A DNA stretch of 20,000 nt from an uncultured virus (IMG/VR IMGVR_UViG_3300044445_000196) (Duplodnaviria; Heunggongvirae; Uroviricota; Caudoviricetes). The stretch lies in IMG/VR virus record IMGVR_UViG_3300044445_000196. One strand, 5' to 3'. The notes under the pieces were generated by a model. It worked only from the letters and a program-made list of their open reading frames with translations. It was not told where the DNA came from and did no database searches. Within the stretch, counting starts at the first letter, position 1. Every line of letters begins with the position of its first letter. Shown piece after piece: positions 1,337 to 18,855 of this stretch. The position numbers were made by a program, and so were the translations under genes.

Positions 1337-1870
1337 GTGAGCACCCGAGACGACCTGCTGAGCGGCGAACACCGCTCCCCCGCCGAAGTCACCCGCGTCA
1401 TATCGCCGGGCCTGTACGCGTGGTGGGACGACGAGCAGGCCCTGCCCTGGCCGGCCGGCTTCCCCTCGGTCGACCAACGGCTCCCGGTCTACGTCGGCAT
1501 CGCCGCATCGCAGAGCCTCGGGGCTCGCTTCGAGAAGAACCACCTTGCTCGCACCCGCGGTTCCGGTCTTCGCCGTAGCCTCGTCGGTCTTGTGGTCGGA
1601 CAGCTGGGCCTCGAACCGCACTTGGTCCTGAACGACGCCTCCCGCCCGTCGAAGTTCACCCTCGACGAGGAGGGCGAGAAGTGCCTGACCGCGTGGATGC
1701 TCGAGCACCTGCGTGTGACCTGGGTGGAGATGGCACACCCGGGGCGGGCCGAGGAAGCGCTCATCGCATCGCTCGTGCCGCCTCTGAACGACATTCACGC
1801 GACGGGGTCGCCGTACCGCGCGGCGATGCGTGCCGTACGTCAGCGGGCGGCGTTCAGCGCTCGGAGATGA
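1337..1870 (+). CDS. GIY-YIG family nuclease (177 aa; alternative start ATG 1328)
   Basis: PGLYAWW...VYVGIA...LGAR...H...SGLRRSL...EEALI...PPLN gives the GIY/YIG, Arg, Glu and Asn motifs. The upstream part of ORF 1004..1870 is a shadow of the opposite-strand gene. Confidence 0.8.
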   Translation: MSTRDDLLSGEHRSPAEVTRVISPGLYAWWDDEQALPWPAGFPSVDQRLPVYVGIAASQSLGARFEKNHLARTRGSGLRRSLVGLVVGQLGLEPHLVLNDASRPSKFTLDEEGEKCLTAWMLEHLRVTWVEMAHPGRAEEALIASLVPPLNDIHATGSPYRAAMRAVRQRAAFSARR

Positions 1871-2492
1871 CCGTGTCGGCGTGGTCGCGGAAGCCCCACC
1901 ACCGGTCGGTGTCGGACAGGGTGGCTCCAACCACCAGGCTCCCGCGCCACTCCGCCTCCCCCATGGACGTGAGCTGTTGACGCCAGAACTCCCGCTCGGG
2001 TATGGACGCGCGCTTCGTCTCCGCGACCGTCAGCGCCTGTTCGGAAACCCTCTCGAGCTCGGGGCCTTCGAGATCCTGGATCGAGCCGTCGTAGTCGAGG
2101 TGCTCGTAGTAGAGCGCGGCGACACCGCGGCGCATCCCGTCACGGAACTCTGCGGCCTCCTCGTCGTGCGACGCGAGCGAATCCGCGTCGCGGATCCAGG
2201 CGCGCGTTGCCGCCACCCGCTCCCGGCCCGCGACGCCGCGGGAGAGTTTGCCGTCCTGCACCGAGAAGACCAGCGGGTCGATGTACTCGTCGAAGACAGC
2301 GAGCCGCCCCCTCTTCACCTCGGTGACGTCCTCGCGGTCAATTCGGGGGTCCACCGGCGGGCGCGCTTCCCCGCCGGGCAGAGACGCAATCTCCGAGCGC
2401 CCGATGGCGAGCTCGGGTGCGCTGTGGTGCGCCTGCGCGAACCGCCCGGTACGGCCGTGGCGGGGATGCTGGGGCTCGTCGAAGGAGGTCAT
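1854..2492 (-). CDS. Hypothetical protein with shared N-terminal HPR..G.F..SAPE tag (212 aa)
   Basis: Begins MTSFDEPQHPRHGRTGRFAQAHHSAPELAI. The start is 10 nt after CCGCGCA. Confidence 0.75.
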   Translation of the reverse strand: MTSFDEPQHPRHGRTGRFAQAHHSAPELAIGRSEIASLPGGEARPPVDPRIDREDVTEVKRGRLAVFDEYIDPLVFSVQDGKLSRGVAGRERVAATRAWIRDADSLASHDEEAAEFRDGMRRGVAALYYEHLDYDGSIQDLEGPELERVSEQALTVAETKRASIPEREFWRQQLTSMGEAEWRGSLVVGATLSDTDRWWGFRDHADTVISER

Positions 2493-2502
2493 GATCGCCA
2501 TG

Positions 2503-2518
2503 TGCGCGGCGCCGCGCA
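2503..2518. promoter_or_regulatory. Back-to-back CCGCGCA motifs forming a perfect 16-bp palindrome between divergent genes
   Basis: TGCGCGGCGCCGCGCA. Each half lies exactly 10 nt from an ATG (2492 on minus, 2529 on plus). Confidence 0.75.
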
Positions 2519-2528
2519 TGGAGGAGCC

Positions 2529-3224
2529 ATGACCCCGACTGAGCCCGAAGCCGCCAATACCCCCATGCTGACCGAAGAGGCCGGCAACTCCATCCTCGAC
2601 ACCATCGCCGAAACGATGCTGCCGATGAAGAACGAAGCCGGGGACTGGGTCGACCTCCCCACGAACCAGCGTCTGAGCGCAGCCTTCGGCCCGCTTGCTG
2701 AGACGGTCGCCCGCATGATCTTCCTCGCCGCTGCCAGTGGCCACGACGCGGGTCTGCTCGCTGTCACCCCGTCCGGGGAGCGCACCGACATCCTCGCCGC
2801 TGGGCTGCGTCGTGTGCACACGGCCGACATGTTCGGCGACTGCGTCGAGGACGGTGACCACTACCCCTGCAAGACCGCGCGCATCCTTGACCTCGTCGCC
2901 GGGGCCCCCGAGCCCACCAGCGCAGGCGAAGCACCCGATGGCGCGCTCGAGGAGCAGACGCTCGGTCTTCGCGACCTCACCTTCCCGACCGAGGACGAAG
3001 CCGCGTTCATCGGTGACACGGTCATCCTCGGCATGGTCCGCCGCGACCAGCTGCAGGCGGGCGACACCGTGCTCACCGCGCAGTACGGCGTTCGCACTGT
3101 GCAGTCCGTGAACGTCCTCGGAACGACCGTCACGGTCGCCTACGAGCCCGCGGACGCCGAAGCCGCCCCCACGGAGTCTCACCCTGTCGACGCGCGCGTG
3201 CCGCTCGTGGATTCTCGCGACTGA
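2529..3224 (+). CDS. Hypothetical protein (231 aa)
   Basis: MTPTEPEAANT..., preceded by GGAGGAG and the CCGCGCA motif. Contains H...CVEDGDHYPC (possible metal site) and a C-terminal beta-rich segment (LQAGDTVL...VRTVQSV). Confidence 0.7.
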   Translation: MTPTEPEAANTPMLTEEAGNSILDTIAETMLPMKNEAGDWVDLPTNQRLSAAFGPLAETVARMIFLAAASGHDAGLLAVTPSGERTDILAAGLRRVHTADMFGDCVEDGDHYPCKTARILDLVAGAPEPTSAGEAPDGALEEQTLGLRDLTFPTEDEAAFIGDTVILGMVRRDQLQAGDTVLTAQYGVRTVQSVNVLGTTVTVAYEPADAEAAPTESHPVDARVPLVDSRD

Positions 3225-3245
3225 GGGCCAGCGGCAAGCTCTGCC

Positions 3246-4064
3246 CTACAGCAGCGAACGGAAGCTCGTGCGCAGCAGCACCCGCTGCAGCCCGGCGCGC
3301 GCTGCGGAGACCGCGGCCGCGGGGTCCTGGGGCACTGCCGGTGCCGGGGTGGCGAACCCTGACCCGTGGCAGAGCGCGTACGCGAACACATCGGCGCCGA
3401 CCGAGCCGCTCGCGACAGCGCCGAGGGCGCGGGCGAGTCCCCACGCCTTCTGCTCCTCGCTCTGCCCGTGGATGAGGGTGAGCACTCGACGGGAGGTGGG
3501 CGCGGCGTCGCGGCGGCTCTCCACGGCGTAGCCCAGGGCGGCGGCGGCCGCGCGCAGGTCGTCGACGAACCCGACGGGCGCGCCCTCGCTGAGCTTCGAC
3601 CAGGGGCGTTCGAGTTGCGCGCCGGAGGTGGCGGTGTAATCGAACATCGTTGCTGGCCGGTGCCATGCCTCCTCGACGACCAGCCGCCCACCGTCCCAGA
3701 CGGGGCGCCCGTTCTCACGCTTGACCCGCATCGACGGGGTGAGGACAGCGATGCCACGCTCGATGGTGCGCCGCTGCTGCGCCTGCCATCCGCGATGTGT
3801 GGACAGCCAGGTGGCGTGCGGCTGCTGGTCAAGGACCAGAAGGATGTTCGCCGGGCTCAGCCGGGGGAAGCGCGCGAGGCCGTCGAGGTACCGCGTCCAG
3901 GCGTCCGGCTCGTGCCACGAGCTCATGCCGCGGGCGACGACACCCAGCATCTCGGCCAGCCGGGCTTTCCGATCCGGGATGTCGTTGAACGAGTGCAGGG
4001 GGCGGGCTCGCTGGGCCCGCTCACGCAGGTCGGTGGGGGTCATCGTCGCAGTCACATCGGTCAC
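3246..4064 (-). CDS. ArdC N-terminal-like ssDNA-binding domain protein
   Basis: WTRYLDGLARFPRLSPANILLVLDQQPHATWLSTHRGWQ...GIAVLTP...MFDY matches the ArdC-N (DUF1738-like) pattern. No HExxH in the C-terminal half. Confidence 0.7.
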   Translation of the reverse strand: MTDVTATMTPTDLRERAQRARPLHSFNDIPDRKARLAEMLGVVARGMSSWHEPDAWTRYLDGLARFPRLSPANILLVLDQQPHATWLSTHRGWQAQQRRTIERGIAVLTPSMRVKRENGRPVWDGGRLVVEEAWHRPATMFDYTATSGAQLERPWSKLSEGAPVGFVDDLRAAAAALGYAVESRRDAAPTSRRVLTLIHGQSEEQKAWGLARALGAVASGSVGADVFAYALCHGSGFATPAPAVPQDPAAAVSAARAGLQRVLLRTSFRSLL

Positions 4065-4113
4065 GTATCGCTCGTCTCGTCCAGTGGCGAGATCGTAGCG
4101 ACCACCTCCGACA

Positions 4114-4971
4114 TCACATCTTCGCGAGCGACTCCTGCACCATCCGCTGCCCGACGAGACGGTCGTGTGCGGCCTTCCGGACCGGCTCGTTCTCGCTGGT
4201 CGCGAGAGCTTCGACGACGTCCTGCGGGGTGTCAGAGCGGAGCGCGAGTCGGTACAGCGCGTACGTCAGCTCGATGTCTTCGTCGTCGTCGTCGTCGAGC
4301 CGGCGGTCGCGCGCGGCGATGCCGCGGAGGTCCGTCTCGGTCAGCTGCGGGTTGTCGATGATGTGGTGCAGGCGGTCCTCGCGCTGCAGCTCGTCATCGA
4401 GGACGGCGCGGCTCAGGTTCGGGTGCTTCCCGGAGTGGGTGATGCGCTGGTCCCACGCGCGGTCGACCAGGTCGGTGGGGCTATGCGGGTTGCCGACGAC
4501 GCCGGTGAGCACGAGCCGGGATTCGGTGTACTCGGGGTGCGCATCGAGCGCGGCGTAGAACGTGTCGGGGTGGACGTTCGGGTGTTGCAGCGCGGCGATC
4601 CGGGTCTCCCAGTCGTACGCGCGGTCGGTGGTGATGGCGAGCTCGTGAAGAACCGGCGGCGGGGTGTGAGGGTTCAGTGCCACCTCGTGTGCGGGCCCGT
4701 GGACGCGGTCTTCGGCGTGGATGGCGAGCAGCGCACGGTCGGTGGTGGTGCGGGCGCTATCAGAGCGCGCGGCGAGGCTCTCCCCGAGCGCCCAATGGGC
4801 GGCGCGGGCGTCGGGGTCGGTGACGAGGTCGAGGTACTGGCCGCGCATCACCCGGTTGTGCGTGGCGATGTCGCGCTCAGGCGCAGCGAGGGTGACCTCG
4901 GGAGCGCTGACGGTCTTGGTGGTGAAAGTGCCGTCGGTGGCGCGGGGGTGCTCGCGGTCGTTGAAGCTCAT
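4114..4971 (-). CDS. SAPE-tagged protein with LRV/HEAT-like helical repeats (285 aa)
   Basis: Begins MSFNDREHPRATDGTFTTKTVSAPEVTL with a GGAG RBS. Repeated units ALNPHTP, LQHPNVH, VGNPHSP, KHPNLS, IDNPQLT, RSDTP. Confidence 0.75.
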   Translation of the reverse strand: MSFNDREHPRATDGTFTTKTVSAPEVTLAAPERDIATHNRVMRGQYLDLVTDPDARAAHWALGESLAARSDSARTTTDRALLAIHAEDRVHGPAHEVALNPHTPPPVLHELAITTDRAYDWETRIAALQHPNVHPDTFYAALDAHPEYTESRLVLTGVVGNPHSPTDLVDRAWDQRITHSGKHPNLSRAVLDDELQREDRLHHIIDNPQLTETDLRGIAARDRRLDDDDDEDIELTYALYRLALRSDTPQDVVEALATSENEPVRKAAHDRLVGQRMVQESLAKM

Positions 4972-5000
4972 GTGGTTCTCCGTGTTCGAGATGGCGGGCG

Positions 5001-5297
5001 TCAGGCGGCTTCGCGGGTGCTCCACCCGCACTTGGTGCAGGTGCCGCGGCGGATGGTGCCTTCACGGCGGCGGCCGGTGACGAGGGACTTCGTCAGACAG
5101 GGGTCCCGGTCTGCGTGGAGGGGGCAGAGCATTGGGGTGACGGTGCTGTCGCGATTGACCGCGCAGGCGCACCCCTTCTCCCGGACGAATGCGGGCGGTG
5201 CGGGCGCGACGTCCAGGCTCAGCTCGGGGGCGCTGTGCCGCTTGTCCGTGAAGGTGCCATTGCCAGCGCGGGGGTGCTCGCGGGTGTCGAAGGTCAT
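5001..5297 (-). CDS. SAPE-tagged small Cys-rich (putative Zn-binding) protein
   Basis: Begins MTFDTREHPRAGNGTFTDKRHSAPELSL. Contains CAC...CPLH...C...CTKC. GGAGG RBS; starts 1 nt after the upstream stop. Confidence 0.75.
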   Translation of the reverse strand: MTFDTREHPRAGNGTFTDKRHSAPELSLDVAPAPPAFVREKGCACAVNRDSTVTPMLCPLHADRDPCLTKSLVTGRRREGTIRRGTCTKCGWSTREAA

Positions 5298-5298
5298 C

Positions 5299-5649
5299 TC
5301 AGTCCTCCAGGGCGACGGTGATGGTGATGTCCCCGTCCTCGTCGGTGATGGTGAAGTCGGGGTCGGCGTCGAAGTCGGCGAAGGCGTTCGCAGTGTCGCG
5401 CTCGAAGATGACGGGGGTGGGCCCGCCGGTGGGGATGCCGCGGCCGTTGCGGTCGGCGTACCGGCTGAAGAGGAGCGCGTGCGCCTCGGGGTCGTAGTAC
5501 AGGTGCGCTGTGCGCGCTCCGATGGGGGCGTCCTGGCGGATGCGGTCGGCAGCGTCGACGTGCAGGGGCGCTTCGGGGGCGCTCTGGGTCTTGTCGGTGA
5601 AGCGACCGGTGCGCTCGCGCGGGTGCGCGGTCTCGACGAAACCGCTCAT
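5299..5649 (-). CDS. SAPE-tagged small protein with acidic C-terminus
   Basis: Begins MSGFVETAHPRERTGRFTDKTQSAPEAPL. ATGA overlap with the upstream gene. Confidence 0.75.
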   Translation of the reverse strand: MSGFVETAHPRERTGRFTDKTQSAPEAPLHVDAADRIRQDAPIGARTAHLYYDPEAHALLFSRYADRNGRGIPTGGPTPVIFERDTANAFADFDADPDFTITDEDGDITITVALED

Positions 5650-5879
5650 GAGTCGAAGTCTTCGAGGTCGAGGAGCTCGGCCTCGTAGCCGCCCATGTAC
5701 TCGTCGATGTGCGCTCCGGGGTTGGCGGCGCGGCCCTGGCGGGCGTCGGCGACGCCGCGCTCGTGGGCGTCCTCTTCCGTCTCGGCGGACAGGTCGAGCT
5801 CGGGGGCTGTGTGCTGCTGCGCGCCGAAGCGGCCGCTGGCGTGGCGGGCGGCTTCTCGGGCGGTGTCGACGGTGGTCAT
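5646..5879 (-). CDS. SAPE-tagged small acidic protein (77 aa)
   Basis: Begins MTTVDTAREAARHASGRFGAQQHTAPELDL. The start is 10 nt after CCTCGTA. Confidence 0.75.
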   Translation of the reverse strand: MTTVDTAREAARHASGRFGAQQHTAPELDLSAETEEDAHERGVADARQGRAANPGAHIDEYMGGYEAELLDLEDFDS

Positions 5880-5889
5880 GGCCACCATG

Positions 5890-5896
5890 TACGAGG
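5890..5896 (-). promoter_or_regulatory. Upstream motif instance CCTCGTA(CAT)
   Basis: 10 nt before ATG 5879; heads the operon of four tagged genes. Confidence 0.6.
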
Positions 5897-5903
5897 CGCG
5901 CGC

Positions 5904-6257: not shown

Positions 6258-6300
6258 CTGGTGCGCTCCGTTCAGGTAGTGGACGACTGCACCCCGTCCA

Positions 6301-6307
6301 TGCGCGG
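6301..6307 (-). promoter_or_regulatory. Upstream motif instance CCGCGCA(TGG)
   Basis: Intergenic, 43 nt before ATG 6257, which has its own RBS. Confidence 0.55.
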
Positions 6308-6341
6308 GCGCCGCGGCCACCCGTGACACGAGCAGCAGTGG

Positions 6342-6539
6342 TCAGACGGCCCCCGACGCGGCGCGGACGGCGTCGGTGACGCGCCAGCTGTACACGTCGG
6401 GATAGAGGCGGACCTCCATGGGGAGCTGTTCGATGGCCTCGCGGATGACGTCGTCGAGTGGTTCGCGGGGGCGGTCGTCGGGGCGTCCGAGGGGGTAGCC
6501 GTTGGCGACGGTGGCTTCTTTGGCGTTGTCCTCGCTCAT
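6342..6539 (-). CDS. Small hypothetical protein (65 aa)
   Basis: MSEDNAKEATV...; ATGA overlap with the stop of 6536..6970. Confidence 0.6.
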   Translation of the reverse strand: MSEDNAKEATVANGYPLGRPDDRPREPLDDVIREAIEQLPMEVRLYPDVYSWRVTDAVRAASGAV

Positions 6540-6970
6540 GCGGCCACGGGGTACAGCTGGTCGGGTCCTGCCCACACTTCACGGTCCTCGTTGCACGGCC
6601 CGTCGTGCTCGCAGGCGAGGATGCACCAGTCGTCGTCCGGGCAGCTGAACGCGGCGGCATCCCCCTGGTCGGCGACCTCGTAGCGACCGTCGGCGCGCAG
6701 CCGCAGCATCCCTCCGAAGGTGGGGTCCCAGAAGATCTGGCTTGCGCGCAGCAGAAGACGGCGGGCGGCGCGGATGTCGGCGGTGGTCCACTCGGGATCC
6801 GGGTCGCGGCGGGGATTCGTTGCCGCGTCGGTGTTCCAGTGTTCCGCGAGGGCGTACGCCCCGAACGCGTCAGGGACCGTGAGCTGGTCTCCGGCGATGC
6901 GGAGACCGTTCAGGGCGAGGTTTGCGGGGACGGCGGGGTTACCCCGCTCGCTGTTGCTGCGGAACGGCAC
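6536..6970 (-). CDS. Hypothetical protein with Cys/His-rich C-terminus
   Basis: GAAAGGA RBS before GTG. C-terminal CPDDDWCILACEHDGPC. Confidence 0.65.
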   Translation of the reverse strand: MPFRSNSERGNPAVPANLALNGLRIAGDQLTVPDAFGAYALAEHWNTDAATNPRRDPDPEWTTADIRAARRLLLRASQIFWDPTFGGMLRLRADGRYEVADQGDAAAFSCPDDDWCILACEHDGPCNEDREVWAGPDQLYPVAA

Positions 6971-7015
6971 GAGTCGGTCCTTTCAGAGCCGCGGCGTGCG
7001 GCGTCCTGTGTCCCA

Positions 7016-7022
7016 TGCGCGG
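7016..7022 (-). promoter_or_regulatory. Upstream motif instance CCGCGCA(TGG)
   Basis: Intergenic, 45 nt before GTG 6970. Confidence 0.55.
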
Positions 7023-7046
7023 TCCCACGTCGGGCACGTGCCCGGC

Positions 7047-7511
7047 TCAGTCGCGCAGGTGCGTGAGCGCGTGCTGAGCCCAGGCGTCTGTCCGGGCACG
7101 CCAGTGCTCGACGTCCGTTTCGTCGCGGGGTGCGCCGATGGCGTCGGCGAGGTCGGTGCGGATGTCGGGGGTGCAGGCGTCGTCGTCGCCGTCGTGGAAG
7201 GTGGATTCGATCTGCGCGGCCCACTGTTCGGCAGTGTCGCCGTGCTCGATTCGTGCTTCACGGAACGCTTCGAGGATGGGGTTGTCCTCGGGCGAGCGAG
7301 GAGTGAGGTCGTCGATGTCGCGCAGGTGCCAGGGGACGCCGGTGACGAGGGGCTGCGACGGAAGCGCGGGGCGCTCGGGCGCGGTGGCGCGCGGGTGGGC
7401 GGGGACGGCGGTGATGGCGACCTCGGGGGCGGAGGTCGCCTTGACGCTGAACCGTCCGCTGCTCTCGCGCGGGTGGTCGGTGGGTGCCCAGGCGGTGATG
7501 GTGTCGGTCAT
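7047..7511 (-). CDS. SAPE-tagged hypothetical protein (154 aa; alternative start 7520)
   Basis: Begins MTDTITAWAPTDHPRESSGRFSVKATSAPEVAI. The start is 10 nt after CCGAGTA. Confidence 0.75.
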   Translation of the reverse strand: MTDTITAWAPTDHPRESSGRFSVKATSAPEVAITAVPAHPRATAPERPALPSQPLVTGVPWHLRDIDDLTPRSPEDNPILEAFREARIEHGDTAEQWAAQIESTFHDGDDDACTPDIRTDLADAIGAPRDETDVEHWRARTDAWAQHALTHLRD

Positions 7512-7516
7512 GCCGG

Positions 7517-8470
7517 TCATGTACTCGGCAGCTCGTCGAGGTACGCGACCGCGTCCAGGCCCGCGACTGCTCCGCTGCCGGCGGCGGTGATGGCCTGCCG
7601 GTAGATGGGGTCGATGACGTCGCCGGCGGCGAAGAACCCGGCGGTGGGGTACGCGACGCCGGGGACCACGGAGGTGCGTCCGATGGTGCAGATGGTGCCG
7701 TGCTCGCTGAGGGCGACCTGCCCTTGGACGAGGTCGGTGCGGGGGTCGCTGCCGATGGCGATGAACAGTCCGGTCACCTCGAGCACCTCGTCGATGGTGG
7801 CGGTGTGCTCGATGAGGACGGAGCGGAGCGCTCCGTCGTGCTCGTCGAGGATGGCGACGGTGCTGTCGAGGATGAGGGTGATGTTCGAGGTGGCGTGGAC
7901 GCGGTCCTGCATGGCCTTGGATGCGCGAAGTCGGTCGCCGCGCGCGACGATGTAGACGGTGTGGGCGTACTTGGCGAGGGCGAGGGCTTCCTCCATCGCG
8001 GAGTCTCCCCCGCCGACGACGGCGACGTACGCTCCGGCGAAGAAGGGCGCGTCGCAGGTGGCGCAGTAGCTGACTCCGCGGCCGGTGAGCGTTTCCTCGT
8101 TCGGGAGTCCGAGGGTGCGGTGCTGACTGCCGGTCGCGAAGATGACGGCGTCGAAGCCAATGGTGTCCCCTGCCGCGGTCGTGGCGGTCTTGCCTGCGAC
8201 GTCGAGGCGGGTGATGTCGTCGAAGCGGATGTCGGCGCCGGCTTCGATGGCCTGCTCCTGCATTCGTTCGATGAGCTCGGGGCCCTGGATGCCGCCGGGG
8301 AAGCCCGGGAAGTTGTCGACGGATGTCGTTGTGGTCAGGTCGCCGCCGGGGCGTTCCATGCCGGTGTAGACGACGGCGGGGTGTCCGGCGCGCCCGGCGT
8401 AGATGGCGGCGGTGAGCGCTGCGGGTCCGGCGCCGATGATGAGCAGGGGGATGTGCGACGAGGAAGGCAT
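7517..8470 (-). CDS. trxB: Thioredoxin-disulfide reductase
   Basis: FAD-binding IIGAGPAALTAAIY, VDNFPGFP, redox-active GVSYCATCD, nucleotide-binding VVGGGDSAMEEA, C-terminal FAAGDV..YRQAITAAGSG. Confidence 0.95.
   Translation of the reverse strand: MPSSSHIPLLIIGAGPAALTAAIYAGRAGHPAVVYTGMERPGGDLTTTTSVDNFPGFPGGIQGPELIERMQEQAIEAGADIRFDDITRLDVAGKTATTAAGDTIGFDAVIFATGSQHRTLGLPNEETLTGRGVSYCATCDAPFFAGAYVAVVGGGDSAMEEALALAKYAHTVYIVARGDRLRASKAMQDRVHATSNITLILDSTVAILDEHDGALRSVLIEHTATIDEVLEVTGLFIAIGSDPRTDLVQGQVALSEHGTICTIGRTSVVPGVAYPTAGFFAAGDVIDPIYRQAITAAGSGAVAGLDAVAYLDELPST
7522..7528 (-). promoter_or_regulatory. Upstream motif instance CCGAGTA(CAT), inside the 3' end of trxB
   Basis: 10 nt before ATG 7511. 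Confidence 0.5.
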
Positions 8471-8476
8471 GCCGCC

Positions 8477-8914
8477 CTATGCGCGCCCCTCCTGCTGAGT
8501 TCGCAACTGCGCGAACTTCTCAGCGCGCTCGGCTCGTGAGCTCTGCAGGCGGGTGATGCTCTGGACGAGGGCGGCGTACCAGCCGTCGAAGGGGATGAAG
8601 TGATGACCGTCGGCCGCGTATTGGCGCGCCCAGCGCGCCTCGTCGAGGTCGGCGACGCCGAGGGCGATGAAGTGCTCGAGAGCGCCGAGCAAGCCGTGGA
8701 CGCTCCACTGGTTGTGCAGCTGCAGACCGACCGTGCCGTCCGCGTAGGTATGGGGAGTGGCGCGTCGAAGGGCGCCTTCGACGCAGCTGAGGCAGGTCGC
8801 ACCAACGTAGGAGCGCCCGGCGCGTCTGAAGGTGCCGCCGCCGGTACGCGCAACCGGGTAGGTGTGCTCGCGGCGGAGCCTGCAGTACCGGCAAGTGCTT
8901 CTGGTCGGCGTCAT
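8477..8914 (-). CDS. Hypothetical protein with two CxxC pairs (putative Zn finger)
   Basis: CRYC...CLSC. The start is 10 nt after CCGCGCA (8925-8931). Confidence 0.65.
   Translation of the reverse strand: MTPTRSTCRYCRLRREHTYPVARTGGGTFRRAGRSYVGATCLSCVEGALRRATPHTYADGTVGLQLHNQWSVHGLLGALEHFIALGVADLDEARWARQYAADGHHFIPFDGWYAALVQSITRLQSSRAERAEKFAQLRTQQEGRA
8480..8486 (-). promoter_or_regulatory. Upstream motif instance GCGCGCA(TAG)
   Basis: 9 nt before the trxB ATG. Confidence 0.55.
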
Positions 8915-8924
8915 GCATGCCCCA

Positions 8925-8931
8925 TGCGCGG
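8925..8931 (-). promoter_or_regulatory. Upstream motif instance CCGCGCA(TGG)
   Basis: 10 nt before ATG 8914. Confidence 0.6.
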
Positions 8932-8948
8932 CAATGGCAGCCGTCCCG

Positions 8949-9764
8949 TCACAGGACGAACCCGTTGCGTTCCAGGTCGGAGCTCGGCCGGGAGCCGGGG
9001 GTGACGAAGGAGACAGCCTCGGCTTCGGCGGCGCGGGCGCCGTTCATCTTCATGGTGCGGGTGCCGTGCACGGGGTATCCAGCGCGGGCGAGGTTGCCGG
9101 CGGTGTCGAAGACGATGACGTCGAACGTTCGCGCGAGCTCGCGAGCCCGGACCCAGTAGGCGTCGTAGTCGAACCCGCCGTTCTTGTCGTTGTACGGGGT
9201 CTTCGTACCCTCGTAGGGCGGGTCGAGGATGACGAGGGGGTTCTCCCCCGCAGCGGCGATCTGCTCGTCGGTGATGTCGGCGTAGCTGGCGTTCACGACG
9301 GTGGGGGCGAGTTCCTGCCAGCGTGTGAGTGCGCGCTCGTACTCGGGGCGGAGGGCCATCGCTTCATGCCGGGGGCTGGTGCCGCGTTTGCCGGGTCCGC
9401 CGCCCTTGTGGGTGGCGTTGAATCCGCGGTCGGAGTAGCGGAACAGGCCGCTGAACGCCATCGCGCTCAGGCCGTATGCGTGGCGCCACCAGTCGTGGCG
9501 GACGCGGACGGCGTAGTAGTCGTCGCGGGTGAACACATCGGGGACGACCAGCTCGTCGTAGCGCCCGATGATACGGGCGAGCATCGGGTCCAGTTCGACG
9601 AGGAGTGCCGTGTCGGCGTAGTTCATGGCGATGGAGCCGGTACCGGCGAACAGCTCGACGATGGTGCGGCCGCGGAGGTGTTCGAGCCGGTGGATCCAGT
9701 GGGATTTCGAGCCGGCGTAGGAGGGCAGGAGGCGGACGGGCTCGTGGGAGGGGGTGGAGGCCAT
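8949..9764 (-). CDS. Orphan DNA adenine methyltransferase (Dam/D12-like)
   Basis: LPSYAGSK, SAM-binding VELFAGTGSI, AFSGLFRYS...FN and catalytic ILDPPY, in Dam-family order. Confidence 0.85.
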   Translation of the reverse strand: MASTPSHEPVRLLPSYAGSKSHWIHRLEHLRGRTIVELFAGTGSIAMNYADTALLVELDPMLARIIGRYDELVVPDVFTRDDYYAVRVRHDWWRHAYGLSAMAFSGLFRYSDRGFNATHKGGGPGKRGTSPRHEAMALRPEYERALTRWQELAPTVVNASYADITDEQIAAAGENPLVILDPPYEGTKTPYNDKNGGFDYDAYWVRARELARTFDVIVFDTAGNLARAGYPVHGTRTMKMNGARAAEAEAVSFVTPGSRPSSDLERNGFVL

Positions 9765-9773
9765 GCCCGCCTA

Positions 9774-9780
9774 TGCGCGC
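9774..9780 (-). promoter_or_regulatory. Upstream motif instance GCGCGCA(TAG)
   Basis: 9 nt before ATG 9764. Confidence 0.55.
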
Positions 9781-9798
9781 GTCCCCCCGGGAACGAAG

Positions 9799-9828
9799 GC
9801 AGGGCCCCCGCCGTGGCGGGGGCCCTGC
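9799..9828 (-). terminator. Intrinsic terminator-like hairpin after the BspA-like gene
   Basis: Perfect 14-bp inverted repeat GCAGGGCCCCCGCC-GT-GGCGGGGGCCCTGC, 14 nt past the stop and followed by CTTCGTT on the minus strand. Confidence 0.75.
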
Positions 9829-9842
9829 TCAGGTGGTGTGGC

Positions 9843-11351
9843 TCAGCGGCCGAGCTTGGGCTGCTGCGCGACGGGCCACGCCCACACGCTGGCGGCGAAG
9901 CGCGGGTAGGTCTTCACGGCCTTGACGTCCCAGCCGCTCAGGTTCTGCGAGTAGCGGTACGCGTTGCGGAACATGTCACCCATGTCCGTCACCTTGGCGG
10001 TGTTCCAGCCGGCGAGGTTCTGGTTGAAGAACTCCGCGTTGATGAACATGGCGTTCATGTCGGTCACGTTCGTGGTGTCGAAGGTGCTGATGTCCTGGTT
10101 GAACAGCTTCGCGAACGCGAACATGCTGCGCATCGTGGTCGCCTTCGAGGTGTCCCACGTGGACAGCGGCTGGTTGAACTTCGCCGCCTGGTGGAAGGCC
10201 CCGCTGAAGTCGGTCACGTTGGACGTGTCCCAGTTGTCGAGCGGCTGGTCGAACGCGGCCGCACCCTGGAGCACGTTGCCGAGGCTCACCACGGAGCTGG
10301 TGTCCCAAGAGTTCAGCGGCTGGTTGAAGCGCGTGGCCCCCGCGAACATCTGGCTCATGTCCGTGACGCTCGAGACGTCCCAGCTCGAGATGTCCTGGTT
10401 GAACCAGGGGTTCGACTCGAACATGTTGGCCGTCGTCGTGACCTTGGAGGTGTCCCAGGTGCCGAGGGGCTTGTTGTAGTTGGTGGCCCGGAACATGCCC
10501 ACCATGCGCTCGACGTTCGAGGTGTCCCAGCCGGAGATGTCCTGGTCGAAGGAGGTCGCCTGGTCGAACATGTTGCTCAGGTGCGTGGCGCTCGAGGTGT
10601 CCCAGCCCCCGATGGGCTGGTTGAAGGACTTGTTGTTCCAGAACATCGACCCGAACTGCTTGACGTTCGAGGTGTCCCAGTTGCCGATGGGCTGGTTGAA
10701 CGACCCGACGCTGAACATGTTGGTCATGTACTCAGCGGAGGAGGTGTCCCACTTGTCGAGCGGGCGGTTGTACTGCGAGTACCCGAACGTGTTGTGGAAG
10801 TTGGTGACCTGGGAGACGTCCCAGTCGTTCAGCGGGCTGTTCATCTGGGTCGCGCCGTAGAAGGCGTTCATCATGCTGGTGACGCCGGCCGGGATGGTGG
10901 CGGGGACGGAGCGCAGCCACTTCATGTTGTAGAACGCGTAGTCCAGGCTCGTGAGACCGGGGTTGCCGCTCAGCTCGGGCATGGCCCGGAAGCAGTCCTG
11001 CTGGACGCCGGTGCCGGACACACGCGAGTCGATGCCGGTGAAGGTGCCCTCGAAGGTCACCTTGTACTGGCCGTACGCGCCGACCGGGATGGCGGGGATG
11101 TTGCCGTCGAACGTGGTGGCGGTGTCCCACGTGCGACCGTCGCTGACGGTGGTCTTGCCGACGGCGTTCACCAGGGGCAGCTTGACGGAGGTCGCGACGT
11201 TGCACTGGAGGTCGAAGACGACCTTGCCGCCGGTGGCGGTGACCGCCGGTGCGGGAGTGTCGGCGGCGTTGGCGGGGACGGCGGAGAGAAGGGACATGGT
11301 CACGGCTGCGGCGGCGACGAGTGCGCCCCCGAGACGGGTCTTGCGATTCAC
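9843..11351 (-). CDS. Secreted BspA-family / DUF285 repeat protein (502 aa)
   Basis: GTG start after GAAAGAAAG. Sec signal peptide MNRKTRLGGALVAAAAVTMSLLSAVPANA, then about 13 copies of the FNQPLxxWDTSxVxxMxxMF repeat. Confidence 0.9.
   Translation of the reverse strand: MNRKTRLGGALVAAAAVTMSLLSAVPANAADTPAPAVTATGGKVVFDLQCNVATSVKLPLVNAVGKTTVSDGRTWDTATTFDGNIPAIPVGAYGQYKVTFEGTFTGIDSRVSGTGVQQDCFRAMPELSGNPGLTSLDYAFYNMKWLRSVPATIPAGVTSMMNAFYGATQMNSPLNDWDVSQVTNFHNTFGYSQYNRPLDKWDTSSAEYMTNMFSVGSFNQPIGNWDTSNVKQFGSMFWNNKSFNQPIGGWDTSSATHLSNMFDQATSFDQDISGWDTSNVERMVGMFRATNYNKPLGTWDTSKVTTTANMFESNPWFNQDISSWDVSSVTDMSQMFAGATRFNQPLNSWDTSSVVSLGNVLQGAAAFDQPLDNWDTSNVTDFSGAFHQAAKFNQPLSTWDTSKATTMRSMFAFAKLFNQDISTFDTTNVTDMNAMFINAEFFNQNLAGWNTAKVTDMGDMFRNAYRYSQNLSGWDVKAVKTYPRFAASVWAWPVAQQPKLGR
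9905..10850 (-). repeat. About 13 tandem 23-25-codon coding repeats (DUF285 type)
   Basis: Recurrent GTGTCCCA...GGCTGGTTGAA on the + strand with a period of roughly 72-75 bp. Confidence 0.85.
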
Positions 11352-11468
11352 GTGTTCTGCTTTCTTTCGGGTGAACACTGATTGCCGCGCACCCTGCGGC
11401 ACATCGCGCGTGTCGCGTTTCAGGCGTTGGGTGGAGACGGCTCCCCTACGCGGCTCGGGAGACGCGGA

Positions 11469-11498
11469 GAGGGGCACGGCTGTGGTGCCGTGCCCCTC
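11469..11498. other. 12-bp perfect stem-loop (terminator or 5' leader structure)
   Basis: GAGGGGCACGGC-TGTGGT-GCCGTGCCCCTC, 5 nt downstream of CCGCGCA at 11504-11510 (minus strand). Confidence 0.6.
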
Positions 11499-11533: not shown

Positions 11534-12223
11534 TCAGTCCTCGTCGAGGTACCCTTTCGCGCGGTCCACGAGCGCGTCGGTGTCGACCCCGCGTGCGCGC
11601 AAGTGGGTGAGGATGTCCGCGATGGCGTCGGCGGCATTGTCCTCGAGCTCCGCGTCATCCGACCCGTGCAGGCCGATGAGCGTTGCGCCGCGCTCGGCGG
11701 CCGCGGCGGTGTAGGCCTCGTCGCTGTGGTCTGCAGGCGCGGGTGCCTCAGTCGCAGCGGCGACCCATCCCTTCATCGACGCGGTCGCGACGGCGCTCGT
11801 AGCGGCGTCTGAGCTCGAAGTCACATGGCCCTGCACGGCGCGGAGGTACGTCGCGATCTCCTCGTCGACGTCGTCACCGAGTCCGGTGGGCTCGTCTTCG
11901 AAGCTGGACCACTCGTCGTCGTACTCGTCGGACCCGCCGAGGGAGACGTGCACCTCGTCACGCTCGTCGGTGGCCGGGAACGTGATCGACACGAAGGGGC
12001 GACCGCTGCTGTCCTCGAGGTCGGCGGTGACGACACCGCCGGCAGGGATGGTGCTCGGGTACGGGATGTGCGGTGCGGTGTTCGGTGTGTAGTGCCCGAT
12101 AGTGGGCACGGTCCGCGGTGCACCGAGCGCCGCTTCCGGGGCGGAGTGGTTCTGGGCGCCGAAGCGGCCAGTGGCTTGGCGGGCTGCTTCGCGGGCGGCG
12201 TCGTGGGGGTCGTTGATGTGCAT
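11534..12223 (-). CDS. SAPE-tagged acidic hypothetical protein (229 aa)
   Basis: Begins MHINDPHDAAREAARQATGRFGAQNHSAPEAAL. The start is 10 nt after CCGCGTA (12234-12240). Confidence 0.75.
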   Translation of the reverse strand: MHINDPHDAAREAARQATGRFGAQNHSAPEAALGAPRTVPTIGHYTPNTAPHIPYPSTIPAGGVVTADLEDSSGRPFVSITFPATDERDEVHVSLGGSDEYDDEWSSFEDEPTGLGDDVDEEIATYLRAVQGHVTSSSDAATSAVATASMKGWVAAATEAPAPADHSDEAYTAAAAERGATLIGLHGSDDAELEDNAADAIADILTHLRARGVDTDALVDRAKGYLDED

Positions 12224-12233
12224 GCCCCCGATG

Positions 12234-12240
12234 TACGCGG
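12234..12240 (-). promoter_or_regulatory. Upstream motif instance CCGCGTA(CAT)
   Basis: 10 nt before ATG 12223. Confidence 0.6.
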
Positions 12241-12560: not shown

Positions 12561-12566
12561 ACCGTA
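12561..12566 (-). promoter_or_regulatory. Housekeeping-sigma-like -10 box (TACGGT) for leaderless lsr2
   Basis: TANNNT box 6 nt before ATG 12554; no RBS. Confidence 0.55.
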
Positions 12567-12646
12567 ACAACGGGGCTCCACGCGTTTCACGTCGCCCGGT
12601 ACGGATCCAGCCCGCTCCTGCCACGGCAAGGGGCGGCCGCGGGTAC

Positions 12647-13906: not shown

Positions 13907-13958
13907 GTCACTGGCTCCTCGGTACGCCCAGGCGCGGGCGGTGCGAGGGGCCTATGCG

Positions 13959-14333
13959 CTACCGCAGGACGGTGAAGGTCGCGTCCCGGTGGAAGGTGAA
14001 GTCAACCGGCTCGCCGCCGTCGAGGTCGAAGGTGATGGCGTCGTCGGTGTGCCCGTCTTCGTCGGCGCGCTTGCGGCTGATGACGGTCAGCGCCTGCGGA
14101 TACCCCGCGGCGGCCCACCGCCTCCGGAGGTCGCGGGAGCGGCTGAGCGGGTAGTCGAAGTAGCTGCGCCCGTCGGCGTTGGGGGCCGTCTCCACCCGGT
14201 CGCCGGGTTCCACTTCGCGGGCGGTCAGGGCGAGGGTGTGAGGAAGGGTCGCTTCGGGCGCGGAGTGTTCCTGCGCGCCGAACTTGCCGTCGCGGTGGCG
14301 GGCGGTCTCGCGTCGCTGTTCCTGCTCGCTCAT
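13959..14333 (-). CDS. SAPE-tagged small protein with SH3/KOW-like beta segment
   Basis: Begins MSEQEQRRETARHRDGKFGAQEHSAPEATL with a GGAGG RBS. Contains AREVEPGDRV. Confidence 0.75.
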   Translation of the reverse strand: MSEQEQRRETARHRDGKFGAQEHSAPEATLPHTLALTAREVEPGDRVETAPNADGRSYFDYPLSRSRDLRRRWAAAGYPQALTVISRKRADEDGHTDDAITFDLDGGEPVDFTFHRDATFTVLR

Positions 14334-14402
14334 GTGTGCCTCCGGGGCGTTGGGGTCTCACCCATCCTGCCGTCGACGGCGAGTGGGTCATCATCCCCCA
14401 TG

Positions 14403-14409
14403 TACGAGG
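14403..14409 (-). promoter_or_regulatory. Upstream motif instance CCTCGTA(CAT)
   Basis: Just past the helicase stop and 69 nt before ATG 14333. GCCTCGTACATGG is identical to the copy at 5885-5897. Confidence 0.55.
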
Positions 14410-14414
14410 CGAGA

Positions 14415-16517: not shown

Positions 16518-16527
16518 CTGAGGGCTA

Positions 16528-16534
16528 TGCGCGG
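16528..16534 (-). promoter_or_regulatory. Upstream motif instance CCGCGCA(TAG)
   Basis: 10 nt before GTG 16517. Confidence 0.6.
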
Positions 16535-16557
16535 CGGCGGTCAGCCGCCTGCACCAT

Positions 16558-16673
16558 GGTCAGAGCCGCCCGGTTGGGAGTCATCCCGGGCGGCTCTGGT
16601 GCTTCCATGCGCGGTGCACGGTCGCGGGTGGTGAGAACCGCCCGGGCGTGGACACAACCCGGACGGCTCTGGT
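16558..16673. repeat. Two tandem copies of a 43-44 bp palindromic element
   Basis: 16558-16600 GGTCAGAGCCGCCCGG-N11-CCCGGGCGGCTCTGGT and 16630-16673 GGTGAGAACCGCCCGG-N12-CCCGGACGGCTCTGGT. Confidence 0.75.
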
Positions 16674-16678
16674 CGGTG

Positions 16679-17986
16679 TCAGCGGTTCGCGGCCGCCCAG
16701 CGCTCGTTGGCGAGCATCGTGGCGGCCATGGCCACCAGCTCGTTGCCGTAGTGCTGGCCGCCGCCGTAGCCCCGCCCGAAGTTGAACGAGCCGGCGGAGG
16801 TGCGGAAGCCGTTCTCCTCGCTCGCGCGCTGGTAGAACGCCTGCGGGATCTCGCGCGGGGTGTCGCGGTGCTTTGGGTCGAAGTCGATGCCTTCGGCGGC
16901 GTATGCCTGGACAAGGAACGCCTCGGCATCCCGGGTGGTCTCGTCGGAGAACTCGCGGTTGACGAAGATGAAGTCGGGCCCGTAGCTGACGGACTGTGGG
17001 ATGCCGTCGGCGTCGTGCTCGGCACTGCGGATGTAGTCCTTGGAGTCCGTCATGCCGTCGAACGTGGCGCCGGAGTAGGCCTTGGCGACCGGTTCGGCGT
17101 CCTGCAGGGGCGGTCCGTCGACGTAGCTGACGTGCGTGGACGAGCCTCCGGCGTAGCTGTCCCCGCGGACGGAGAACTTCGTCTTGCCGAACGCGGTCTT
17201 CAGGTCCTGGCGGATGAGCGTGTTGGTGTCCTTCAGCGACACGTGCTTGGTGGGGCGCAGACGTCGGATGGTCTGCTCAGCGCGGGCGCGGTCCTCCTCG
17301 AGCGCGTCATCCCACACGGCGTCGGTGAGGGGGCCGAGGTGCGCCTCCTGGGCGTCGCGGTTCTCCCGGTCCGCCTGCTCGCGCTCGGCGCGCGAGCGGT
17401 GGATCTCCGCCGCGGCGGACTCGCCGAGGGTGCCCTTCGCCTGCTCGGCGCGGGCCCAGTTCAGCATGTACCCGAGGCTCTCGTCGTGGTAGTCCTTCAC
17501 GTCGTACCCGCGGGCGTCGATGAGGAGGGTGATGGCGTTCTTGACGTCGGGGTCGGTCTCGCGGTCGAGAGCGCTCGGCTCGTCCGTGTCGACGGCGAGG
17601 GCGGCCTGGCGGGCCTGGTACTCCTCCTGCGTGCGGCGGTTCGCGGCGTCACGGGCGAGGCCGTCCTGGATCTCGGCGAGCGATTTCTCCGGGATGTCGT
17701 CGCGGTCGATGCCGGCACGGCGGAGCAGGTCGGACAGCTCGAGGCGCCGTGCGGTGGCTTCACGCTCTTCGGGGGTACCGGTGTAGGTGTCCCGGGTGGG
17801 TGCGTCGAGGCTCACCTGCGCGGCGGTGAGGTCGTCGTCCAGCTCGCCGAGCTCGTTCATCTCGGTGAAGATGTCGTCGAGGCTCAGCTCGGGGGCGGAG
17901 TGTTCCTGCTCGCCGAACTTGCCGTCGTTCTGACGTGCGGCCTCGCGGCGGGCGGCGAAGCGGGCGGTTGCGTCGATGAGTGCCAT
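16679..17986 (-). CDS. SAPE-tagged protein with C-terminal LPD29 (large polyvalent protein-associated) domain (435 aa)
   Basis: Begins MALIDATARFAARREAARQNDGKFGEQEHSAPELSL. IRQDLKTAFGKTKFSVRGDSYAGGSSTHVSYVDGP...ATFDGMTD...FIFVNREFS matches the LPD29 pattern as I recall it. Confidence 0.8.
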   Translation of the reverse strand: MALIDATARFAARREAARQNDGKFGEQEHSAPELSLDDIFTEMNELGELDDDLTAAQVSLDAPTRDTYTGTPEEREATARRLELSDLLRRAGIDRDDIPEKSLAEIQDGLARDAANRRTQEEYQARQAALAVDTDEPSALDRETDPDVKNAITLLIDARGYDVKDYHDESLGYMLNWARAEQAKGTLGESAAAEIHRSRAEREQADRENRDAQEAHLGPLTDAVWDDALEEDRARAEQTIRRLRPTKHVSLKDTNTLIRQDLKTAFGKTKFSVRGDSYAGGSSTHVSYVDGPPLQDAEPVAKAYSGATFDGMTDSKDYIRSAEHDADGIPQSVSYGPDFIFVNREFSDETTRDAEAFLVQAYAAEGIDFDPKHRDTPREIPQAFYQRASEENGFRTSAGSFNFGRGYGGGQHYGNELVAMAATMLANERWAAANR

Positions 17987-17996
17987 GCCGCCTATG

Positions 17997-18003
17997 TGCG
18001 CGG
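17997..18003 (-). promoter_or_regulatory. Upstream motif instance CCGCGCA(CAT)
   Basis: 10 nt before ATG 17986. Confidence 0.6.
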
Positions 18004-18024
18004 CGGCCCCGCGAGGCGTGCGGG

Positions 18025-18855
18025 TCAGCGGGTGGTTGGGGGAAGTTCCCAGAGTCCGCCATGGCGGTCGGTCTCCACGAACGCCTCGTGCTCGTGACCG
18101 CGGATGTTCGAGGCGGCCCAATCGAGCTCGTCCCAGTCCACGTCGAGGTCCTCCGCATCCGCTCCGCGAAGCTCGCTGCCGTCGGCGAAGCGGACACCGA
18201 TGGGGTTCAACCACCGCCCGCCCTGGTCGGTCTCCTCGAGTAGAAGGGTCGCGCCGGCCGGGAGATCGCGGCGGAGGGTGTCCACCAGTTGCGCGGGGGT
18301 CTGCTCGTCGACAGGCACCCGCCCGGCGTTTGCGGCGGCGTCGCGGAGGGTGTCGAGGTAGGCCTCGCGCGAGGGCTCGTCGTTCGGGTCGATGCCGGCA
18401 CGGATGACGTCACGCGATGTCGCGGTCGTACCGGGCAGGATGATGTCGAGGTCGGAGTTGTAGTGCGGGTCCGCGGCGTCGGTGATTTCCGCCTCGCGCT
18501 GCAGACGCTCGAAGTTGGTCTCGACGCGGATTTTGTGATGCCCGGCAGCGATGCCTGCGGCGTTGACTTCGGTGTTCCAGTGGCCCGGGCCGTAGCCGAC
18601 GGTGACGCTCTTGGAGTCGGGGTGGCCGGGGCCTTCATCGCGGCGCTGGACGATGCAGGGGTAGTCGCGGCCGTCCTGGGTGAGGATGACACTTGCTCCC
18701 GGCTGCAGGGTGCTCATGATGTGGCGGGCTTCGGCCAGGGTGGGTGTTCCGACGGCGAGTTCGGGGGTGCTGCGCTCGTGGGAGGCGAACGACCCGGCGT
18801 TGGAGGATGCGGTGGTGGCGCCGCGGCGGACCGCGCGCTCGTCGAAGGTGGCCAT
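18025..18855 (-). CDS. Hypothetical protein with divergent SAPE-type tag (276 aa)
   Basis: Begins MATFDERAVRRGATTASSNAGSFASHERSTPELAV. The start is 10 nt after CCGCGCA. Confidence 0.75.
   Translation of the reverse strand: MATFDERAVRRGATTASSNAGSFASHERSTPELAVGTPTLAEARHIMSTLQPGASVILTQDGRDYPCIVQRRDEGPGHPDSKSVTVGYGPGHWNTEVNAAGIAAGHHKIRVETNFERLQREAEITDAADPHYNSDLDIILPGTTATSRDVIRAGIDPNDEPSREAYLDTLRDAAANAGRVPVDEQTPAQLVDTLRRDLPAGATLLLEETDQGGRWLNPIGVRFADGSELRGADAEDLDVDWDELDWAASNIRGHEHEAFVETDRHGGLWELPPTTR

Follow-up and report, generated by a model that had tools for sequence, protein, structure and literature searches.

A short N-terminal peptide shared by ten unrelated proteins of an element related to actinobacterial plasmids, and recurring at the seams of phage head modules: a candidate address peptide

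Why should ten clustered genes, the products of which have no detectable similarity to each other, all begin with the same short peptide? The question is raised by a stretch of 20,000 nucleotides (nt) of the IMG/VR record IMGVR_UViG_3300044445_000196, filed as an uncultured virus of the Caudoviricetes (the whole stretch is called the window here). The first-pass annotation of the window noticed the shared peptide (hereafter the tag) and proposed that it is a common address for a variable set of early-acting cargo proteins. The ten peptides quoted there are exact, and alignment and profile search agree on them. All ten genes are on the minus strand, have ATG starts at positions 2492, 4971, 5297, 5649, 5888, 7520, 12223, 14333, 17986 and 18855 (by which they are named here; Table 1) and encode proteins of 80-435 amino acids (aa) with at most one known domain each, the tag taking up the first 25-36 residues. 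The motif is selected at the protein level, stands at N-termini and at domain seams, and occurs in phage head modules as well as in conjugative-type plasmids, together with diverse cargo. Our tentative reading, possible rather than probable, is that the tag may be a portable peptide, for docking or as an address, of effector modules which travel with transferred DNA or act with it.

The tags fall into two classes, one opening with F-x-[DE]-x-x-H-P-R (HPR class) and the other with R-E-A-A-R (REAAR class), and both continue as x3-G-x-F-x4-5-H-[ST]-[AT]-P-E-phi-x-[LI]. Three or four variable residues separate the head of the tag from G-x-F, phi-x-L makes a short strand, and behind it comes a body of any fold. 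When the first 45 residues encoded by the ten genes are aligned, R, G, F, P and E do not vary, and S and A are conserved to at least 90%; A-P-E or T-P-E is present in all ten tags. The tag of 18855 is divergent, and the syntenic homologue of this gene in locus L008 bears a clear one. Of 401 six-frame segments, a profile made from the ten tags matches these ten and no other (48.3-66.9 bits, against 7.0 bits for the next), a test that on the window is circular by construction. An independent profile was trained solely on 55 N-termini of the Curtobacterium plasmid pS16, which is described below. It recovers eight of the ten tags (E values from 3.4e-9 to 2.9e-4), reaches only E=0.23 for 18855, misses 5649 at E<=1 and finds no further tagged open reading frame (ORF) in the window.

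The bodies behind the tag had been called unrelated, and this holds: the best pairwise BLASTP match between them has an E value of 0.49, so ordinary homology of the C-terminal parts is not seen. Four codons are used for the invariant Gly, four for Ala and two for Glu, and Ser is encoded from both of its codon boxes (AGC and TCC). Because the invariant residues use differing synonymous codons, selection must act on the peptide. Similarly, among 11 homologues of the LPD29 protein encoded by 17986 (48-85% identity, plus one identical sequence) the tag is nearly invariant while the body diverges. In the AlphaFold2 model of that protein the body has a mean predicted local distance difference test score (pLDDT) of 77 and residues 1-63 a pLDDT below 50. 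Strong conservation combined with predicted disorder is typical of short linear interaction motifs, and the tag would have this signature.

The first 35 residues of the proteins, where the tag lies, are covered by none of Pfam, NCBIfam and PHROGs. In the PDB, the tag profile finds no chain at E<=10, and a profile of the seam motif described below has two non-significant matches only, 9rku (E=1.1) and 9r2i (E=7.1). The non-significant match in 9rku is PRDASGRF at residues 84-98 of chain Af, a phage protein ('putative tail biosynthetic protein'). Three known kinds of N-terminal or DNA-binding signal were considered and rejected. Neither a Sec nor a Tat signal is present, as the annotation had stated; in all ten sequences the tag is polar, with no hydrophobic stretch and no RR-x-FLK. 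A type IV pilin or class III signal came into question because the Glaciihabitans plasmid introduced below carries an A24 peptidase; the residues after G-x-F are polar and the hydrophobic helix is absent. AT-hook-like DNA binding does not suit tags that are near neutral and preceded by acidic residues.

To which elements do such genes belong? The window proteins are part of a metagenomic contig of 146,171 bp, their close relatives are all metagenomic, and window DNA is contained in leaf metagenomes. A search for near-identical DNA gave trxB at 70% as the sole match in the plasmid collection and no match in the phage collection. Tag-profile matches at E<=0.01 were found on three complete plasmids, namely pS16 of Curtobacterium sp. 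MCSS17_016 (545,759 bp, 20 matches), NZ_CP043654.1 of Glaciihabitans sp. INWT7 (148,839 bp, 9 matches) and a plasmid of Arthrobacter sp. zg-Y1110 (400,603 bp, 4 matches), and a Cryobacterium plasmid had none. The gene starts annotated by the Prokaryotic Genome Annotation Pipeline (PGAP) agree with the tag starts. A scan of genome contigs with one tag alignment yielded one real relative, Brachybacterium. In B. equifaecis three weaker tags are found on a hexapeptide transferase, an LPD1 protein and a DUF7007 protein, and an SNF2 helicase gene adjoins. A full-length SecA gene lies just upstream of this weakly tagged block and helicase (6314-8932 of locus L001), and may adjoin an integrated element there by mere chance. 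A metagenome scan added a single locus of 7.4 kb, distinct from the contig of the window. Viral contigs scanned with one tag alignment gave nothing, nor did the SNF2 protein in the same scan, and one window tag had no tblastn match among 50,697 phage records. The annotation had named chromosomal housekeeping proteins as a place where the tag should not be found, and no match at E<=1e-4 was obtained in 401 sampled actinomycete genomes of the class, with 18 candidates scored per genome and without a positive control.

The window and pS16 also share other genes, at protein identities of 54% for TrxB, 52% for the D12 methylase, 41% for Lsr2, 40% for SNF2 and 57% for DUF6283, and the C-terminal part of the 5297 protein is 64% identical to a portion of a tagged pS16 protein. 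Among the genes of pS16 are one for a VirB4-like AAA_10 ATPase, two for coupling proteins, several of the FtsK/SpoIIIE type and a single one for a sigma factor (near 360 kb). Common to the three plasmids is a colinear module of a VirD4-like type IV coupling protein (T4CP), a hypothetical protein, a NERD nuclease and a giant FtsK/SpoIIIE protein (1500-1700 aa). The plasmids also have in common Tad-like ATPases, TrxB, an RNA ligase, a PD-(D/E)XK nuclease and a small FtsK/SpoIIIE gene beside the tagged genes. Neither the proteins of the colinear module nor any of the ATPases carry a tag. A coupling protein is thus encoded on all three related plasmids; none is encoded within the 20-kb window. Tad/type-IV-pilus-like ATPases are found together with a TadB/C-like protein and an A24 prepilin peptidase at 99.5-104 kb of the Glaciihabitans plasmid and at 275-291 kb of pS16; this Tad-like set is conserved on the tag-bearing plasmids and may form a conjugative pilus. 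Judged by sequence comparison, the ten genes are members of an extensive 'tag-first' set carried by big plasmids of Micrococcales-type actinobacteria, and the relatives of the window are plasmids, not phages. Packaging into a capsid, one of the routes that the annotation had suggested, is unlikely for this element, because the three complete plasmids related to it encode VirD4-like and FtsK-like ATPases and give no match to HK97 capsid, TerL (both searched in pS16) or MuF (searched in all three).

The spread of the motif is wider than this plasmid family. The ten-tag profile was run over 1.84 billion representative proteins, and 332 protein clusters match it at E<=1e-3. Among the best 150 of the 332, 125 have a single copy within the first 70 residues (median length 206 aa; three of them are the window's own), 21 are giants of 683-3673 aa in which the first half of the tag occurs internally three to seven times, three are spurious repeats matching the SAPE half alone, and one resembles two merged tagged genes. 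The copy numbers of the giants apply to a re-scan threshold of 0.1, the original search having reported up to eight stretches. A Pfam domain was detected in only 11 of the 119 N-terminally tagged representatives scanned (of the 125): pentapeptide repeats and LRV in two each, and KTSC, Mg-chelatase AAA+, DprA, DUF7007 and DUF3263 in one each. Cargo with such domains is typical of establishment or anti-defence sets.

The internal motif of the giants has the consensus [WF]-[DE]-E-x-x-H-P-R-(D)-x-x-G-[KR]-F-x-x-K. By their domain content the 21 giants are polyvalent-type proteins: ART-PolyVal is present in four (three above the Pfam cut-off), an N-terminal HK97-type prohead protease (Peptidase_S78) in three (two above), MuF in two (one above) and FtsK/SpoIIIE in two. 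The other domains are InPase, C39 peptidase, Zeta toxin with a TrxB-like domain, RelA/SpoT and GNAT, and seven of the 21 have no match. In the polyvalent protein P0085 the motif flanks each of the TrxB-like domain and the Zeta toxin. The FtsK/SpoIIIE-domain proteins P0019 and P0082 (2025 and 2533 aa) have five HPR motif copies each, and after several of these follow glycine/alanine-rich membrane-like segments; here the motif is on a translocase-like protein and not on cargo. Whether the motif would also occur at internal positions had been raised as a possible objection to an address. It is mostly N-terminal, but in the giant polyvalent proteins it is internal, at module seams.

The same half of the tag is found in phages. 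The DNA pattern for EHPRD..GKF matches at least 124 IMG/VR contigs, about five being expected on a rough estimate from residue frequencies. Among the matches listed there are 76 distinct ORFs, 68 of which were scanned with Pfam (the other eight are the three largest and five from loci L096, L104, L106 and L126); the following counts refer to these 68. The motif stands directly after a portal domain (Phage_portal_3 or Phage_portal_2) in approximately 22 ORFs, where it is followed by topoisomerase IB, NUDIX or Zeta-toxin domains or merely by a tail of 40-150 residues. A DUF2213 domain is present in six ORFs, with the motif after it in five. The motif follows MuF in one ORF and lies beside an XkdF-type protease (Peptidase_S78_2) in one. 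In addition, it is the extreme N-terminus of stand-alone Zeta toxins, ADP-ribosyltransferases (ARTs), topoisomerase IB, RelA/SpoT, GNAT-ART, LPD3 and PBECR1 proteins, which start M-x(1-5)-[FW]-x-E-x-E-H-P-R-D-x-x-G-K-F and so have the architecture seen in the window. At approximately 21 loci with such free effectors (32 upstream ORFs scanned) the gene immediately upstream encodes a portal in eight and MuF in three, with a terminase before it. From these portal and MuF positions the phage motif therefore marks a seam between a head-internal carrier and an effector, which may be fused or split. The HPR..G.F motif was not found in Pag-Yong1 and F116, which are phages with polyvalent proteins. Altogether the motif occurs in phages and plasmids of both low-GC and high-GC hosts. 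As for the company in which the annotation expected the tag, phage head genes or a type IV secretion system (T4SS), portal, MuF and protease accompany the motif in viral contigs and a T4CP is present on the plasmids, but capsid genes are not found on the latter.

A second feature of the tagged genes is a DNA box in front of some of them. The 9-nt box of CCGCGCACA-N8-ATG (in the form CCGC[GA]CACA; 20 nt with spacer and ATG) occurs four times in the window where 0.01 would be expected, each time at the start of a tagged gene (Table 1). The six other tagged genes lie within operons and have no box, and a looser box pattern gives two more matches, both inside genes. In a strain variant, four bases at 18007-18012, just upstream of the 17986 box, are changed and the box itself is the same. 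No conserved bases were seen further upstream of the box, and the four window boxes have no RNA fold in common (z-scores -0.97, 0.15, 0.54 and 1.75). In pS16 the pattern C[CG]GC[GAC][CT]ACA-N8-[AG]TG is found 63 times and is followed by an ORF of at least 100 aa in 60 of them. As judged by eye, 55 of these 60 ORFs begin with a generalised tag, M-T-x2-6-R-x-[KG]-[DG]-x-G-x-P-G-N-G-G-x-F-x4-[HR]-x5-6-[DE]-[VI]-[TA]-L, of which HPR and REAAR are subclasses, and all 17 strong pS16 tags have the box. It also precedes tags in Glaciihabitans, Arthrobacter, Brachybacterium and one metagenomic locus, and each plasmid has it at 46-67 genes. The box is not tied to the tag: on the Arthrobacter plasmid it precedes 67 ORFs, only eight of which are tagged. 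From its position and distribution the box looks like an element-wide start, promoter or short-leader cassette. It points to an element-specific expression signal, of which no existing description was found.

How, then, could the tag work? If it is an address, the peptide would link modules for effector or establishment functions, otherwise unrelated, to the machine by which the DNA of the element enters the next cell, and the modules would arrive there, or act, along with this DNA. For tailed phages the machine would be the portal/MuF/prohead-protease core of the head, and in this plasmid family a VirD4-like coupling protein and/or FtsK/SpoIIIE-type ATPases. What stands of the address proposed in the annotation is a portable, position-specific, conserved and disordered motif before unrelated bodies, whereas transport, packaging and cleavage are still matters of interpretation; the binding of the peptide, its partner and the transfer of tagged proteins are what we infer. 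A bolder version, in which one disordered peptide would serve as a general 'ride with the DNA' address read at phage portals and VirD4/FtsK-type gates alike, we regard as doubtful. If it were true, any module bearing the peptide would be delivered to the next cell, either free or as a bead on a polyvalent string.

Several points weigh against an address. Where one address would suffice, polyvalent proteins hold one copy per module, as would rather be expected of a cleavage seam or of a handle for each module. It is also difficult to see cargo in those portals that have no more than 40-150 residues after the motif. Between the phage and the plasmid machines there is no homology, which makes a common receptor less than obvious, and the known T4SS signals lie C-terminally or internally, not N-terminally. 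The transfer machinery of the element is judged from the 20 kb of the window together with the related plasmids, and the chromosomal search from the limited scoring given above.

Because the polyvalent proteins hold several copies per polypeptide, a protease seam has to be taken seriously as an alternative to a pure address, although on the whole we consider it unlikely. The motif would then be a recognition or cleavage site separating effector modules, cut by the prohead protease in phages and by a plasmid or host protease here, and in single-module genes it would be a removable propeptide, by analogy with the T4 capsid-targeting sequence (CTS) that is cut by gp21 after Glu. The one copy per module in the 21 giants, three of which start with a prohead-protease domain, and the position of the motif between portal, MuF or DUF2213 and effector domains agree with this. 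The window tags end in [ST][AT]PE, in agreement with the A-X-E cut rule reported for the SPN3US, phiKZ and T4 head proteases (PMC5694885), and on pS16 an S53 and an S1C peptidase flank a tag cluster. However, in the window and pS16 proteins the motif starts as early as residues 2-8, and a cut there would release almost nothing, and the SAPE part is not kept in the pS16, Arthrobacter and phage copies. Moreover, prohead protease, capsid and terminase were not found on the related plasmids, and the genes common to all three include no peptidase. The per-module copies, and the spread over phages and plasmids of low-GC and high-GC hosts, would also be explained by a universally conserved partner, if the motif acted after entry as a handle recruiting a universal host factor in the recipient (a refolding chaperone, a common hub or a target). 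J-domain-type proteins are encoded in the window (381-1265, with an HPD motif) and in pS16 (238739-239449), but the two have no detectable homology outside the J domain, and the motif is not known to resemble the Hsp70, ClpX, beta-clamp and SSB-tail binding motifs; we think such a handle quite unlikely.

Two further explanations dispense with delivery. The tag could be part of a shared start module, consisting of a promoter or short-leader box and the first codons, or it could be an N-terminal degron that keeps the proteins low in the donor. Four of the ten window genes and all 17 strong pS16 tags begin exactly 8 nt behind CCGC[GA]CACA, and M-T opens many tags. Both forms nevertheless appear decidedly improbable: the box is separable from the tag on the Arthrobacter plasmid, six of the ten window tags have no box, synonymous codons vary, the peptide also occurs deep inside polyvalent proteins and after portal domains, and a stable RNA fold around the box was not seen. 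That the tagged proteins are ordinary paralogues, descended by duplication from one small ancestral protein of which the N-terminus alone is still recognisable, would suit the clustering of the genes and the fact that some bodies have tagged relatives in pS16. We hold it to be highly improbable, since the bodies are mutually dissimilar, their folds are distinct (LPD29, LRV, pentapeptide repeats, DprA, hexapeptide transferase, ImmA/IrrE peptidase, Zeta toxin, ART) and the tag is predicted to be disordered and outside the fold.

An address of the kind proposed here has parallels in known systems. Type III effectors are recognised by an hrp-box and an N-terminal export signal, and in a similar way unrelated effectors would here be recognisable by a common upstream DNA box together with an N-terminal feature. 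The machinery is different, the tag is a strict sequence motif and not a compositional bias, and on the Arthrobacter plasmid the box serves many untagged genes, unlike in hrp-box effectors. In type IV and type VII secretion, VirD4 or EccC-type FtsK/SpoIIIE ATPases read short unstructured signals, and a VirD4-like coupling protein and FtsK/SpoIIIE ATPases are encoded on each of the tag-bearing plasmids. The signals of those systems, however, are C-terminal, or internal in relaxases, and unrelated in sequence; the tag is N-terminal, and its recognition by such ATPases is suggested by analogy.

The internal proteins and Alt of T4 and the ejection proteins of phiKZ and SPN3US have peptides that are reported to be cleaved off behind the Glu of A/S-X-E or L/I-X-E sites (PMC5694885). 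The T4 CTS and the phiKZ/SPN3US propeptides belong to proteins that are packed into the phage head and enter the cell with the DNA; like them, the tag is a short N-terminal peptide common to unrelated proteins. The A-P-E at the end of the window tags resembles those cut sites, and cleavage here would be a prediction from the letters of the tag. In contrast to the T4 CTS, the motif is also found internally and after portal domains, there is no sequence likeness between the two, and the relatives of the window are plasmids in which head genes were not detected. Polyvalent proteins combine many unrelated domains (2-15) in one polypeptide and have been proposed to be delivered with the invading DNA (Iyer et al., 2017; PMC5512222). 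With these the window, its relatives and the tagged proteins share LPD29, LPD1, LPD3, ART-PolyVal, SNF2, D12 methylase, ArdC-like peptidase, Zeta toxin and InPase. The window itself has LPD29, SNF2 and D12 methylase of this set, and an ArdC-like candidate at 26% identity (see below). The first half of the tag is a recurrent seam motif in the 21 giants, whereas in the window every module has a gene to itself, headed by a copy of the motif. The string 'HPR' does not occur in the main text of Iyer et al. (2017). In the MuF- and portal-fused polymorphic toxins of temperate phages, head-internal carriers are joined to variable toxin domains (Jamet et al., 2017; PMC5576092). The motif is found at just this carrier/toxin junction in the viral contigs scanned, but the window has no MuF or portal gene, and the main text of Jamet et al. 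(2017) says nothing of a linker, a conserved motif, cleavage, a junction or a pre-toxin.

No description of the motif was found in curated families, in solved structures or in the main texts of the literature searched. The tag is a new signal within known concepts, those of capsid-targeting peptides, secretion signals and polyvalent proteins. The proteins that travel with phage or plasmid DNA are mostly unknown and have so far been worked out element by element by virion proteomics or transfer assays. Here the label can be recognised from sequence; it is present on hundreds of otherwise unannotated clusters and at the seams of polyvalent and portal-fused toxins, and it heads approximately 8% of the genes on the 546-kb plasmid. 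If the tag is indeed an address, the repertoire of injected or transferred effectors of phages and plasmids would be predictable directly from sequence, and the peptide could be used for loading foreign proteins. It would also link the 'internal proteins' of phages with the 'escort proteins' of conjugation, and would give a simple handle for studying early anti-defence and establishment functions. If the protease seam proves right instead, the motif would still define the module boundaries of polyvalent proteins.

Table 1. Tagged genes, start-site DNA boxes and trxB in the window
Feature	Position	Strand	Tag residues (nt)	Remarks
2492, 212 aa	1854..2492	-	1-30 (2403-2492)	HPR class; no known domain
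4971, 285 aa	4114..4971	-	1-28 (4888-4971)	HPR class; weakly LRV-like body
5297, 98 aa	5001..5297	-	1-28 (5214-5297)	HPR class
5649, 116 aa	5299..5649	-	1-29 (5563-5649)	HPR class
5888, 80 aa	5646..5888	-	1-33 (5790-5888)	REAAR class
7520, 157 aa	7047..7520	-	1-36 (7413-7520)	HPR class
12223, 229 aa	11534..12223	-	1-33 (12125-12223)	REAAR class
14333, 124 aa	13959..14333	-	1-30 (14244-14333)	REAAR class; directly downstream of SNF2 helicase gene
17986, 435 aa	16679..17986	-	1-36 (17879-17986)	REAAR class; LPD29 protein
18855, 276 aa	18025..18855	-	1-35 (18751-18855)	Divergent tag
DNA box, CCGCGCACA-N8-ATG	2490..2509	-		Start of gene 2492
DNA box, CCGCGTACA variant	12221..12240	-		Start of gene 12223
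DNA box	17984..18003	-		Start of gene 17986
DNA box	18853..18872	-		Start of gene 18855
trxB, thioredoxin reductase	7517-8470			Stop overlaps start of tagged gene 7047-7520

The window has a G+C content of approximately 70%, and nearly all of its genes are on the minus strand. Some of the domains named in the annotation fared differently from others. The LPD29 assignment of the 17986 protein is firm (1.2e-15). The LRV repeats of the 4971 protein amount to a weak likeness, which scores below the Pfam cut-off (17.3 against 21.6 bits), and a relative of this protein, P0051, matches LRV at 2e-10. The protein at 3246-4064, given as ArdC-N, has no match in Pfam or NCBIfam, and its likeness to a tagged ImmA/IrrE-type peptidase of pS16 is 26% identity only. 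Family searches of the untagged genes found a GIY-YIG nuclease, a ProQ-C-like protein, TrxB, a D12 methylase and Lsr2, and the window further encodes the SNF2 helicase, DUF6283, a vWA-like fragment and a DUF285/BspA protein with four repeats. The protein with the J-domain-like HPD motif (minus strand) has a kinase-like C-terminal part (phrog_3043), and its J-domain-type counterpart in pS16 is encoded close to an FtsK gene. Very long ORFs of up to 839 aa lie antisense to real genes, e.g., 1830-3224 and 8862-11381 on the plus strand; they are an artefact of the high G+C content, with no family match where tested. The DUF285/BspA protein (9843-11477, minus strand) looks secreted and coincides with a local dip in G+C content, 62% against 70%, and on the Glaciihabitans plasmid, too, a BspA-family gene adjoins a tagged gene.

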